A DNA stretch of 29,296 nucleotides, from UHGV virus genome UHGV-0080837; one strand, 5' to 3'. Source of the stretch: a virus. The notes under the pieces were generated by a model. The model did no database searches and was not told the origin of the DNA. It saw only the letters and a program-made list of their open reading frames with translations. Shown here in pieces: positions 2,588-18,266 of the stretch (its first letter is position 1; the number at the start of each line of letters is the position of its first letter). A program made the position numbers and the translations under genes.

Positions 2588-3265
2588 ATGAATAACAAGG
2601 CAACGAAAGAGCTTTTTAAGCTCCTTCCCAAATACAAAGCTCAAAAAAACGTTAGTGCATCGAAAATCAAAAATGTTGTTATTTTCGGAGTAACTGATAC
2701 CCCACTTTGGGGCAGCATCGAACTCGTTGAACCTAAAGGGGCAACAGTTTGTGTTGACGCAATGTTTTTACAAAAACACCGACCAAAAACTGGCGGGTAT
2801 CTGATCGTTTATGAAAACGGTTATCTGTTCTATGCCCCGGAGAAACCATTTGAGGAACGCTATGGCCTGGTTAACGACGCCTCCAAAAATGGAACCACGG
2901 TCATCATTACGGATGACAACGGCGTGATGATTAATCTTACCGGGAGCGTAACTATTTCTGCTGGTGGCATCACCACCCAGCAAGAAGAAATCGACCTTGA
3001 AGCAGCCGACTTTTCTGACGCGCTGATGTGGCTGAAGGATGGCAAGAAAGTTGCCCGGCGCGGGTGGAACGGCGAAAACCAATTCTGCTGGCTGGTTCCT
3101 GAAGGACAGTACCCGGCACGAATGGAAGCCATTAAGGGATATTTCCCCGGCGATCTCGTTCCGTATGGTGCTTATTTCGCCTTAAAAAATGCACAAGGTG
3201 TAGTTGTTCCGTGGGTGCCTTCTGTAGGCGACTTACTGGCATGTGACTGGTTTGTAGTGGAGTGA
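2588..3265 (+). CDS. two-domain protein: unknown N-terminal domain plus C-terminal DUF2829 (Tad2-like) domain
   Basis: 225-aa ORF. C-terminal ~85 aa (FSDALMWLKDGKKVARRGWNGEN ... WLVPEG ... VVPWVPSVGDLLACDWFVVE) matches the DUF2829 pattern as I recall it; the N-terminal ~140 aa are unassigned. Confidence 0.6.
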   Translation: MNNKATKELFKLLPKYKAQKNVSASKIKNVVIFGVTDTPLWGSIELVEPKGATVCVDAMFLQKHRPKTGGYLIVYENGYLFYAPEKPFEERYGLVNDASKNGTTVIITDDNGVMINLTGSVTISAGGITTQQEEIDLEAADFSDALMWLKDGKKVARRGWNGENQFCWLVPEGQYPARMEAIKGYFPGDLVPYGAYFALKNAQGVVVPWVPSVGDLLACDWFVVE

Positions 3266-15705: not shown

Positions 15706-16284
15706 ATGCAGAAACAGAGCTATTGGGAGAAACAGAGACAAAAAGCCATGCAAAAATTGGCTGACCCAGCCTGGCGAGAGGAACAAAGGGCAAAGCGCCT
15801 TCAACAAGCTCAACGCCAGCAGCAACGAGCGAGAGAAAAAGCCGCATCGCCTGAATATCGGCAAAAGAGAATTGAAAAAGCAAAGCAATATGACCAGCGG
15901 AGAAAAGAGAAAGCTGTATCCACTCCGTCCAAAAAAACACGCACGTCACGCGGCCTGAAGGGCAGATCACTCACAGCCGATGAACGCCGGATACAGACCG
16001 CTATCGGTACTCTCCCCTGCATTGCCTGCCATATTCACGGGCAACATAGCCCAGTGGTATCCCTGCACCATATCTTCGGGAGAACGGCAGAGAACGCGCA
16101 TAAATATGTCCTCCCTTTGTGTAAATGGCACCACCAGTACGCAGCGCCAGCCGAGGTCCGAGAACAATATCCCTGGCTGGTCCCTGTTCATGCTGACGGA
16201 AAAATAGGCGGAAAAGCAGATTTCATGCGGCACAATGCCGATGAAATGGCGTTGTATCAGATGGCGATTGAATTGATAAATTAG
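15706..16284 (+). CDS. ref: Ref-like HNH-family nuclease (P1 recombination enhancement function type)
   Basis: 192-aa ORF with a long, highly charged K/R/Q/E-rich N-terminal region followed by a Cys/His core (CIACHIHG ... SLHHI ... LPLCKWHH), matching the known architecture of P1 Ref. AAGAGG RBS. Confidence 0.55.
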   Translation: MQKQSYWEKQRQKAMQKLADPAWREEQRAKRLQQAQRQQQRAREKAASPEYRQKRIEKAKQYDQRRKEKAVSTPSKKTRTSRGLKGRSLTADERRIQTAIGTLPCIACHIHGQHSPVVSLHHIFGRTAENAHKYVLPLCKWHHQYAAPAEVREQYPWLVPVHADGKIGGKADFMRHNADEMALYQMAIELIN

Positions 16285-16783: not shown

Positions 16784-16888
16784 AATACTGACTGTTGCGC
16801 CCTGACATTATCGTGGGGTATATTTCTACGGCACCTTAGAAAAACGGGTGCCGGGATTGGTCTCCCGGTAATGTCAAAGGCGACACAT

Positions 16889-16916
16889 AGACGCCACAAG
16901 CGTCTTTTTTGTTGTC
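16889..16916 (+). terminator. hairpin plus T-run (attenuator or terminator-like) inside the immI-like leader
   Basis: AGACGC CACAA GCGTCT followed by TTTTTTGTT at 16889-16913. Confidence 0.35.
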
Positions 16917-16924
16917 GGCGCACT

Positions 16925-17010
16925 CGCACACCTATCAATGGTGGGCTGTGTGGTGGCTTCTTCGGAAGCGCCGGTTCCCTTTGACGCCGGTAAGACCAAC
17001 TCCACACAGT
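16925..17010 (+). ncRNA. c4: candidate c4-like antisense RNA (P1 immI type); boundaries approximate
   Basis: Contains CCCTTTGAC (16977-16985) and AGACCAA (16994-17000), antiparallel complements of GTCAAAGG and TTGGTCT, which occur twice downstream/upstream as direct repeats. Also a GCUUC-UUCG-GAAGC tetraloop hairpin (16956-16969). Confidence 0.4.
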
Positions 17011-17074
17011 CCACCGCCAGTAAGATTGGTCTCTTCGGCGGTGGTATCGTTCACTGTCAAAGGAGGCTGCCAAT

Positions 17075-17290
17075 ATGGCTACTATCCCTACCCCAACTCA
17101 TTCTGAATTTATCTGGCGTTTCTATTCCTGCCAAAAACACCTGTATATCTGCGTCATGGCTGCAACCGAAGCAGAAGCTCGTTCATACCTTCCTGAAGAA
17201 CCCTGCATTTTTGCCGCACGCTTCACTCTTGATGCGATGGAGATCCTCAATTACTGGAATCTGCCAATGAACTGCGTGGAGGTGCACTGA
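17075..17290 (+). CDS. icd: Icd-like small protein (host cell division inhibitor family)
   Basis: 71-aa ORF; pattern IWRFYS ... AATEAEARSYLPEEPCIFAARF resembles Icd-like proteins. Its RBS AGGAGG (17061-17066) is part of the b2 antisense target; its stop overlaps the ant ATG (TGATG at 17288-17292). Confidence 0.5.
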   Translation: MATIPTPTHSEFIWRFYSCQKHLYICVMAATEAEARSYLPEEPCIFAARFTLDAMEILNYWNLPMNCVEVH

Positions 17291-18231
17291 TGAATCTGTC
17301 CATCTCTCAAAAAGCGACAATGACCAGTATTGAGATCGCGGAACTGGTAGGTAAGCGTCATGATAATGTGAAGCGTACCATTGAAGTATTAACTAAAGGT
17401 GGTGTCATTCAATTTCCTCAAATTGAGGAAATTGAAAATAAACAATCAGTTGGCCCTCGTCGATTTTCCAAGGCTTACATCTTTGAAGGCGAACAAGGAA
17501 AACGAGACAGCATTATTGTCGTCGCGCAGCTCTCTCCCGAATTCACCGCCCGGCTGGTGGACCGCTGGCGCGAACTGGAGAGTGCCAAAGTACAGTTAAA
17601 ATCAAAAGCCGAAATTCTGGCTGAAATGGCGCAAATGCATCTTGAGCATGAACGCCGGATCAACGCCGTTAATGCCCAGGTAGCCGAAGTATCGGCACAA
17701 GTGTCCAAAGTCGCTGAAACCGTCGAGCAAATAAAGAAAGGCAATATGCCGGAAGGCTACATTGGCTACCGCCAGTTGGCGGCGAAATGTGGCCTGACTG
17801 AAGCCAAATGTCGCAACCTGGTTAACGCTTACCGGATTCCCACCGATACACATGAGTTTTTGACCCCCGATGGCTTGCTTGCGCGACGCTCCATTGTGGC
17901 TCTGGCCCCCTTCCGGAAAGCCTTCAAGCAGGTTATGTCGGAGGCAGAACCACGCAACAAACGCTGGTATCATCCCAAGATGGGGCTGTTTCAGGCAATC
18001 CATCATCCTTTACCGGAAATCCCAAAAGATAATCTGTCACTGCATACCGCCAGAGAGAAGATCAGAAGTGGATATGCAACGGTATGCCGTCGCGCCTCAT
18101 GGTCTGAAGGTGTATGGGTATGGCCCGAAGGCGGATCAAGGAAGCACTGGCGCACTATCCGGGATGGGAAAATCCATGCTATTGATTTAGCGCCAGAGGA
18201 TATGGTTGCTATGGACTGGATTGTTAGTTAA
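17290..18231 (+). CDS. ant: antirepressor (Rha/Ant N-terminal domain) with C-terminal DUF2829-like domain
   Basis: N-terminus TSIEIAELVGKRHDNVKRTIEVL is a typical Rha/Ant-type HTH start. C-terminal ~60 aa (SGYATVCRRASW ... WVWPEGG ... IHAIDLAPEDMVAMDWIVS) parallel the DUF2829 domain at 2588..3265. Confidence 0.6.
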   Translation: MNLSISQKATMTSIEIAELVGKRHDNVKRTIEVLTKGGVIQFPQIEEIENKQSVGPRRFSKAYIFEGEQGKRDSIIVVAQLSPEFTARLVDRWRELESAKVQLKSKAEILAEMAQMHLEHERRINAVNAQVAEVSAQVSKVAETVEQIKKGNMPEGYIGYRQLAAKCGLTEAKCRNLVNAYRIPTDTHEFLTPDGLLARRSIVALAPFRKAFKQVMSEAEPRNKRWYHPKMGLFQAIHHPLPEIPKDNLSLHTAREKIRSGYATVCRRASWSEGVWVWPEGGSRKHWRTIRDGKIHAIDLAPEDMVAMDWIVS

Positions 18232-18239
18232 TTACTGTT

Positions 18240-18266
18240 GCCCCGGCCAGGTCGGGGCTTTAATTT
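18240..18266 (+). terminator. intrinsic terminator after ant
   Basis: Stem GCCCCG (18240-18245) / CGGGGC (18253-18258), followed by TTTAATTT. Confidence 0.5.

Follow-up and report, generated by a model that had tools for sequence, protein, structure and literature searches.

The viral sequence analysed here, UHGV virus genome UHGV-0080837 (29,296 nucleotides (nt), referred to as the window), represents a D6-like, P1-type phage-plasmid, and its open reading frame (ORF) at 17290..18231 on the plus strand is the ant gene of a c4-icd-ant immunity I (immI) operon. This gene, which starts with ATG and encodes 313 amino acids (aa), is a chimera: a complete Roi/Rha-type body (residues 1-237) is followed, behind a Pro-rich linker of 12 residues, by an autonomous module of 64 residues (250-313). 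The assignment of this module as a minimal and highly divergent representative of the DUF2829/Tad2 fold, which comprises helix α1, a small antiparallel sheet and helix α3 without the α2 insert, is well supported, and architecture and homology taken jointly are considered highly probable. Canonical Tad2 proteins are homotetramers, whose inter-protomer pockets sequester glycocyclic ADP-ribose (gcADPR), histidine-ADP-ribose (His-ADPR) or cyclic nucleotides. The intact module was found only as cargo of operons controlled by the antisense RNA C4, and because of this restricted occurrence it probably acts in or together with the lysis/lysogeny switch. Altogether, a divergent DUF2829 sub-family is described in a new architecture and in a new regulatory context.

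The initial annotation of the window had described a Rha/Ant-type N-terminus for this ORF, which was substantiated by the profile searches. The Phage_pRha winged-helix domain (Pfam PF09669) was recognised at residues 11-97 (17320..17580, plus strand) with an E value of 4.4e-9 and 37.2 bits compared to a cut-off of 29.9 bits, and the family phrog_63 'anti-repressor Ant' matched the protein from end to end (residues 2-313, E value of 4.7e-62). The whole Roi-like body (17290..18000, plus strand) showed 68% identity to orf18 of Escherichia phage D6 over residues 1-237 (BLASTP, E value of 1e-115). In a tblastn search with the ant protein, relatives were found in 578 of 50,697 phage records, including Roi of lambdoid and Shiga toxin (Stx) phages, with identities of up to 64%, the latter value being reached by Roi of PhiR49_2 over residues 1-237. 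Among the tblastn matches listed, only D6 extends past residue ~237, and D6 was the source of all phage records in which 80% or more of the query was covered. The body is followed by the linker HHPLPEIPKDNL (residues 238-249, 18001..18036, plus strand), which is apparent from the sequence and from low values of the predicted local distance difference test (pLDDT), and by the minimal DUF2829/Tad2-like domain itself (residues 250-313, 18037..18228, plus strand). Residues 252-312 were also matched separately by phrog_7385, a family of 65 positions with unassigned function. The full-length AlphaFold model was poor overall (pLDDT of 58), with a pLDDT of 77-86 in the pRha region and below 50 for residues 177-248. 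In this model, the winged helix leads into a long helix (83-149), the following part up to residue 248 is of low confidence, and a small separate domain comes last. Since the Roi homologues stop at residue ~237 and the model shows a separate domain, the last ~64 residues are regarded as an add-on outside the antirepressor fold. The concern raised in the initial annotation, that the C-terminus might simply belong to this fold, can be set aside on the same grounds and also based on a D6 paralogue, which has the domain as a separate ORF.

The suggestion of a DUF2829 domain went back to a comparison by eye, in which the segments SGYATVCRRASW, WVWPEGG and DLAPEDMVAMDWIVS of the ant ORF had been placed in parallel to DGKKVARRGWNG, WLVPEG and DLLACDWFVVE of the ORF at 2588..3265. 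Both ORFs hold the respective segments, and the ant ORF is real. As a pairwise likeness the comparison did not stand, since BLASTP of the two C-termini gave no significant match (E value of 0.37). Likewise, PDB sequence searches, either by phmmer with the domain or by hmmsearch with a 5-sequence profile, gave no match, both methods being too insensitive. At the profile level, however, the likeness was recovered in the very register proposed by eye. Using a curated domain-only alignment of 17 distinct sequences as input, hhalign aligned the domain to a mixed Tad2 set (relatives of the 2588 ORF and three PDB sequences) over 66 columns with a score of 38.2, a probability of 92.8% and a P value of 3.9e-7. 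The P value amounted to 4.6e-6 with the three PDB Tad2 sequences only, to 4.7e-7 with a Tad2 set without the close relatives of the 2588 ORF and to 2.6e-6 with 67 independent IMG/VR Tad2 sequences; a further P value among the Tad2 sets was 2.3e-6. The curated alignments comprised ~66 columns and connected both domains end to end in one register. Compared to the observed score of 38.2, 200 column shuffles resulted in a mean of 10.2 with a standard deviation of 2.2 and a maximum of 20.2, and the reversed alignment in a score of 9.9. The P1 proteins Coi and Icd, included as negative controls, were rejected as relatives of the domain with P values of 0.46 and 0.91. Considering these results, homology of the module to Tad2/DUF2829 is very likely.

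The predicted structure points in the same direction. An AlphaFold model of the domain, calculated from 8 sequences (pLDDT of 71.8), began with a helix and continued with four strands, a second and short helix and one last strand, and the order of elements of the DUF2829 fold (α1, antiparallel β-sheet, short α3, final strand) is present in it. A comparison of such a model with Tad2 structures had been recommended in the initial annotation, and Foldseek placed SPO1 Tad2 at ranks 1-3 in the PDB (E value of 0.35, probability of 0.8, template modelling (TM) score of 0.49). Against BFVD, 9 of the 50 matches listed were named 'Thoeris anti-defense 2-like' or 'DUF2829' (ranks 2, 3, 4, 7, 12, 16, 19, 32 and 43), most of them with a probability of 0.80-0.99 and several with a length of only 65-75 aa. 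In three different fold libraries, Tad2/DUF2829 proteins were in the lead. Although the single fold scores obtained with the model are weak for so small a domain, the enrichment of Tad2 proteins among the matches would not be described as weak.

The ORF used for comparison (2588..3265, plus strand) encodes a protein of 225 aa, for which the earlier reading as DUF2829 proved correct: residues 141-224 form a canonical Tad2 domain of the ModTad2 clade (PF11195, E value of 1.9e-22, 80 bits). In a phmmer search against the PDB, ModTad2 (9eib) was matched with 5e-20 and Tad2 (8v3e) with 7e-20 (E values of ~5e-20 to 8e-21 overall), and the identity to ModTad2 (9EIB) and Tad2 (8V3E) was 45-55%. Members of the ModTad2 clade sequester His-ADPR, the signal of type II Thoeris, as well as cyclic UMP and cyclic CMP (cUMP/cCMP) of Pycsar. 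The N-terminal ~135 residues of the protein matched phrog_872 and phrog_11049, families of unassigned function. By analogy with the 'fused to Tad2' logic (PMC12265669), this part could be considered as a candidate for a second sponge domain.

Based on the register of the curated hhalign alignments, the residues of the module were compared to the ligand contacts of SPO1 Tad2, which are W25, N26, W73, T78 and D79, with D67, H71 and S76 as water ligands (bioRxiv 10.1101/2023.05.01.538930). W25 and D79 are kept as W271 and D304, and the terminal D-W is kept as well, while N26 is replaced by S/P, W73 by I/V/F/Y and T78 by E/A/N. The Gly before the Trp is changed to S/A/D, and at the position of S76 the domain has A or S. 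The α2 insert in the β2-β3 loop, which comprises ~17-20 residues and whose helix α2 forms the V-shaped dimer interface of SPO1 Tad2, is deleted in every alignment compared to the 2588 ORF, ModTad2 and SPO1 Tad2. The comparison also took in the family motifs GWNG and W-x-P-S-x-x-D. Altogether, ~7 of the 14 columns that are invariant among seven diverse Tad2 sequences (alignment A4) are kept in the domain. The module thus shares the PF11195 fold but fails several features of PF11195 membership.

The module has a set of conserved residues of its own. Its family was assembled from the C-terminal parts of Ant proteins of D6-like elements and from three standalone proteins, namely P0134 (65 aa, identical to D6 orf17) and the distant P0128 (68 aa) and P0129 (96 aa). 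Invariant in all of them are G261, C266, R267, R268, W271, W276 and P279, and D304, D309 and W310 are near-invariant. The invariant residues (C-R-R, W, W-x-W-P) fall in the region homologous to the pocket-forming β1-β2 loop. The family is narrow: an exhaustive phmmer protein search with the domain returned only 5 proteins, and word-index searches returned 6 and 16. No relatives of the domain were found in the scan of a genome contig collection, and in the metagenome scan the matches were limited to D6-like loci, to the contig of the window itself (ERZ773112 NODE_408) and to one spurious case, which was located inside an efflux-pump gene (L229) and was discarded. A repeat-containing protein of 600 aa (P0130) appeared unrelated and was dropped from the family. 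In PLSDB, the domain was present in 109 plasmids of E. coli, Salmonella and Shigella, mostly with two copies each. None of the precomputed Pfam annotations of 120 homologues contained PF11195, and the Pfam thresholds miss a whole sub-family of DUF2829-like proteins.

The window region showed 92% DNA identity to D6, and the ant protein is 84% identical to its D6 counterpart orf82, which lies just 3' of an icd-like gene and is annotated as 'anti-repressor Ant'. This label was derived from the location of the gene behind icd. All features of a P1-type immI operon are present on the plus strand, so that the c4/icd/ant immunity-I context assumed in the initial annotation could be verified. A leader with the a1 and b1 copies of the C4 target sequences (16831..16910; a1 at 16855-16864, b1 at 16872-16880) precedes the C4 antisense RNA at 16934..17021, which was detected with Rfam RF01695 (75.3 bits, E value of 3e-13) and with our own covariance model R1 (77.5 bits). 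The target copies a2 (17024-17033) and b2 (17055-17063), together spanning 17024..17063, were recognised as direct repeats and in an alignment of C4 plus leader from four locus types; the spacing is 169 nt for a1/a2 and 183 nt for b1/b2. The b2 copy overlaps the Shine-Dalgarno sequence of the icd-like gene (17075..17290, 71 aa), which was taken from the ORF list and whose homologue in D6 carries the annotation Icd-like host cell division inhibitor. This gene is coupled to ant, the end of the former and the start of the latter having position 17290 in common. The operon is closed by an intrinsic terminator at 18240..18258, a GC-rich hairpin found by a terminator scan. D6-like elements have been described as carrying c1 and two c4/icd regions, and the C-terminal domain goes unmentioned in this description (PMC6799933).

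Two side observations concern the region 5' of the operon genes. The leader at 16831-16910, directly 5' of C4 and spanning the a1/b1 copies, was matched by isrK, an Hfq-binding small RNA (Rfam RF01394, 60 bits). The equivalent slot in the second D6 locus and in two distant loci (L112 and L114, see below) was labelled c4-a1b1 (RF03163) and not isrK. Since the homologous slot receives either Rfam name, both models may describe one and the same element. Further 5' of the immI region lies an ORF of 192 aa (15706-16284, plus strand) with a Cys/His-rich C-terminus. The D6 gene in the corresponding place 5' of icd-ant is annotated as Ref-like RecA-filament endonuclease, a homologue of P1 ref, and corresponds to this ORF by position only.

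Besides the fused form, the module occurs in a split and in a standalone form. The second c4-icd-ant locus of D6 (L111, NC_050154 19789-20917) adjoins repL, and its ant, orf18 (235 aa), ends after the part that is homologous to residues 1-237 of the window protein. The module follows 3' as a separate ORF, orf17 (65 aa), with 45% identity to residues 249-313. It is encoded in a different reading frame, has a separate GGAGG site, starts within a TGATG that also contains the stop codon of orf18, and is followed by a terminator homologous to that of the window. With Rfam, C4 and c4-a1b1 were detected directly 5' of both D6 loci. A comparison of the two D6 ant bodies showed a mosaic, in which some segments are ~90% and others ~40-55% identical; their Tad2-like modules are only 45% identical.

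The standalone proteins P0128 and P0129 are encoded in contigs of ~90 kb, and the region of P0129 (L114) showed 73-77% identity to D6-like elements around the capsid gene. Their start codons lie ~45-50 nt 3' of a C4 RNA, which is itself preceded by c4-a1b1 (Rfam), and thus in the position that icd has in P1 and D6. A b2 repeat was located 15-23 nt before the start of P0128 (L112), and P0129 is the sole gene in its C4 unit. In these distant D6-like phage-plasmids, which include a Raoultella plasmid protein, the Tad2-like protein of 68 aa (L112, 4001-4207) or 96 aa (L114, 4001-4291) is the first or only gene, and the full a1b1-C4-a2b2 unit is situated between capsid-side genes and upfB/upfC-like genes, where D6 is without an insertion. 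The genes flanking the two standalone copies gave no clue, since they belong to PHROGs of unassigned function only.

With model R1, C4 was detected upstream and on the same strand in 56 of the 62 domain-carrying loci. Of the six others, three are cut by contig ends and three are deletion remnants adjoining an integrase and an insertion sequence (IS) element. With the same model, C4 was detected at none of 80 canonical Tad2 loci within ±1.5 kb. Since the intact module occurs in C4-controlled operons only, its production is confined to the situation in which the C4 control is released, either at infection or at induction. The ORFs of 81-83 aa, P0004 and P0005 (L195-L197 and L209-L211), were considered as extra split forms and rejected as deletion remnants without C4. 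Both are annotated as 'transcriptional regulator' and represent 3' remnants of ant adjoining a Cre-like integrase and an IS26-type transposase; the deletion that left them took away c4, icd and the ant body. For the fused copy, a ratio of nonsynonymous to synonymous substitutions (dN/dS) of ~0.1 at a dS of 0.4-0.6 indicates strong purifying selection. The standalone copies showed a dN/dS of 0.35-1.1, values which are too noisy to interpret at a dS below 0.14.

The exclusive linkage to C4, the occurrence fused to ant as well as split from it, and the loss of half of the Tad2 ligand residues together with the dimer insert are the reasons to favour, as a tentative prediction, an action of the module at the protein level, as effector or helper in the immunity switch. 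According to this proposal, lifting of the C4 control at infection or induction would lead to production of the module, which, joined or coupled to the Roi-like Ant or as the sole cargo, would be what the immunity switch puts out. In cooperation with the Roi-like body, it might then bind a partner such as the repressor, or it might oligomerise on the Tad2 scaffold. If a protein is bound, the Tad2 fold would have been re-used as a component of the switch, and the real effector of the D6-type immI operon may be the module of 64 residues and not the Roi-like body.

A number of observations weigh against this interpretation, and those on the side of homology would fit a generic small α+β domain of the Sm/SH3-like kind, which is no relative of Tad2 and whose motif is convergent. 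Such a domain could bind RNA and act on C4 or its targets. The Sm/LSm-like fold is characterised by an N-terminal helix and a bent sheet of five strands with Sm1/Sm2 motifs. The check that the initial annotation had placed first, and had also named as a reason for giving up the assignment, turned out negative: PF11195 gave only 9.9 bits (E value of 1.4) with residues 245-313 and stayed far below its cut-off of 25 bits. Scores of the hidden Markov model (HMM) against single sequences were also sub-threshold (6-9.7 bits) and overlapped with the best of 3000 shuffles, a few of which scored as high. With uncurated alignments, the hhalign result was weaker (P value of 9.8e-4, probability of 22%), in the same register. 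Conversely, four independent Tad2 profile sets gave P values of 4e-7 to 5e-6 from end to end and in one register, with the shuffles not exceeding a score of 20 compared to 38, and Tad2/DUF2829 proteins lead three fold libraries. Moreover, a Pfam search with the isolated C-terminus reported no family other than PF11195, the alignment extending over positions 4-72 of the 73 profile positions. A domain unrelated to Tad2 is accordingly judged unlikely. The DUF2829 assignment of the initial annotation thus holds by profile-profile and fold evidence and fails by the PF11195 HMM itself.

On the side of function, the objections are that most of the 56 loci linked to C4 are closely related, so that they effectively represent three independent architectures (fused, split and alone), and that context alone cannot separate a switch effector from a sponge timed by C4, because the cargo of C4 need not be an antirepressor. 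Icd is none, and an anti-defence gene that is silent in lysogens, from which a lysogen would benefit, fits the same context. Such a sponge would form a Tad2-like assembly with a remodelled pocket and sequester a nucleotide-derived defence signal, C4 providing the timing at lytic onset and the silence in lysogens. It would agree with the remote homology to Tad2 and with the size of the standalone relatives (65-96 aa), which is typical of sponges; the existence of these forms also means that no ant gene need lie next to the module. The ligand specificity of the Tad2 family is plastic (PMC12393519), its members bind many signals and are often fused to other proteins, and the pocket residues W271 and D304 are kept. 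The invariant C-R-R, W and W-x-W-P close to the homologous pocket loop, above all the Arg-Arg and the Trp, would suit a phosphate or nucleobase ligand. A different picture results from the residues that are not conserved (N26, W73 and T78 of the SPO1 pocket), from the deleted α2/β2 dimer element and from the C4 linkage itself, which was observed for all intact domain genes and for 0 of 80 canonical Tad2 genes. In addition, a canonical Tad2 (the 2588 ORF) is already present on the same element, and expression limited by C4 appears low for a stoichiometric sponge. A C4-timed sponge of altered specificity is the main rival, though rather doubtful. A canonical gcADPR sponge in particular is doubtful and less likely than a switch effector, because the context tracks C4, unlike that of canonical Tad2 genes, and because half of the ligand residues and the dimer insert are lost. 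The fused and split ('Rosetta stone') pattern with ant would also be explained by a regulatory domain, in which a small molecule, for example an immune second messenger, switches the Roi-like antirepressor and couples induction to defence signalling. Small-molecule binding is the ancestral activity of the fold, and the strong purifying selection indicated for the fused copy speaks for it as well, as does the pattern itself, which suggests that module and body cooperate physically. Against it stand the standalone forms directly 3' of C4, which demonstrate an independent function of the module by the lack of ant in their unit, the pocket residues, of which only half are conserved, and the literature, in which a precedent was not found; this explanation is considered very improbable.

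The prediction of a switch effector or helper is thus retained. Whether as sponge or as sensor, binding of a nucleotide-derived immune signal by the Tad2-like module, by which defence signalling would be coupled to the lysis-lysogeny decision, is regarded as doubtful, though its consequences would be considerable. A sponge made at derepression only would leave the Thoeris, CBASS (cyclic oligonucleotide-based antiphage signalling system) and Pycsar systems of the host intact in lysogens, and anti-defence would be linked to the decision for lysogeny. Alternatively, a sensor would let the prophage induce when abortive-infection signalling of the host fires. Known Tad2-type domains occur either as free sponges or in fusion with other sponges, and here a cut-down relative is tied to an immunity switch, the carriers being a very common phage-plasmid family of E. 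coli and Salmonella.

A comparison with known systems can be made at the level of the domain, of its fusion, of the body and of the operon. The structures of Tad2/DUF2829 sponges are represented by SPO1 Gp34.65 (8SME), ModTad2 (9EIB) and HgmTad2, the latter being identical to AcrIIA7 (8KBI). The module resembles these sponges in the order of elements, with an N-terminal helix, an R-x-x-W strand and loop, a hydrophobic strand pair and a C-terminal D-h-h-A-x-D-W, and also in being small, phage-encoded and available as a standalone ORF of ~65 aa. It differs by the missing α2 insert between β2 and β3, by the replacement of the GWNG Asn and of the second clamp Trp (W73), by its own C-R-R and W-x-W-P motifs, by a score under the Pfam threshold and by the linkage to C4 in all intact loci. 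Tad2 fusions described so far join other sponges, namely Acb4-Tad2 of Pasteurella phage Pm86 and Tad2-Sequestin (PF21825) (PMC12265669). As in the ant ORF, a Tad2-type domain is joined to another phage protein, and the partners are also found as separate genes, whereas the partner in the ant ORF is not a sponge but a regulator of the DNA-binding/antirepressor type in an immunity operon. A fusion of an antirepressor and DUF2829 was not found in our literature searches, in agreement with the initial annotation, whose author was not aware of one. N-terminal extensions are frequent in canonical IMG/VR Tad2 proteins, and none of them was Rha- or Ant-like by eye, no domain search having been made on them.

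Compared to the Roi/Rha proteins of lambdoid phages (HK022/HK97 Roi; phrog_63), residues 1-237 showed 52-64% identity over the aligned parts. Roi of PhiR49_2 and a gene of an Stx2a phage align over residues 1-237, and most other Roi-type genes over residues 1-146 only. The pRha winged helix, the long helix and the C-terminal part are shared, whereas the extra domain is confined to the D6-like immI copy, the lambdoid proteins ending at residue ~237. CarS, a small antirepressor with an SH3-like fold (PMC2926617), offers a functional analogy only, according to which a small β-rich protein could put a repressor out of action by binding to it directly; it has no sequence relationship and no demonstrated structural relationship to the domain and is mentioned as a lead and not as a result. 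The immI operon of P1 (c4 - icd - ant1/2) agrees in arrangement and in the logic of its control, with the a1/b1 copies, C4, the a2/b2 copies covering the ribosome-binding site of the leading gene, the overlap of icd with ant and the terminator in common. The differences lie in ant, since the D6-type protein resembles Rha/Roi/KilA, as judged by the annotation of the D6 record rather than by a comparison with P1 Ant, and in the number and content of the units: D6-like elements have two such operons, and in related elements the C4 unit starts with, or holds only, the gene of the Tad2-like protein.

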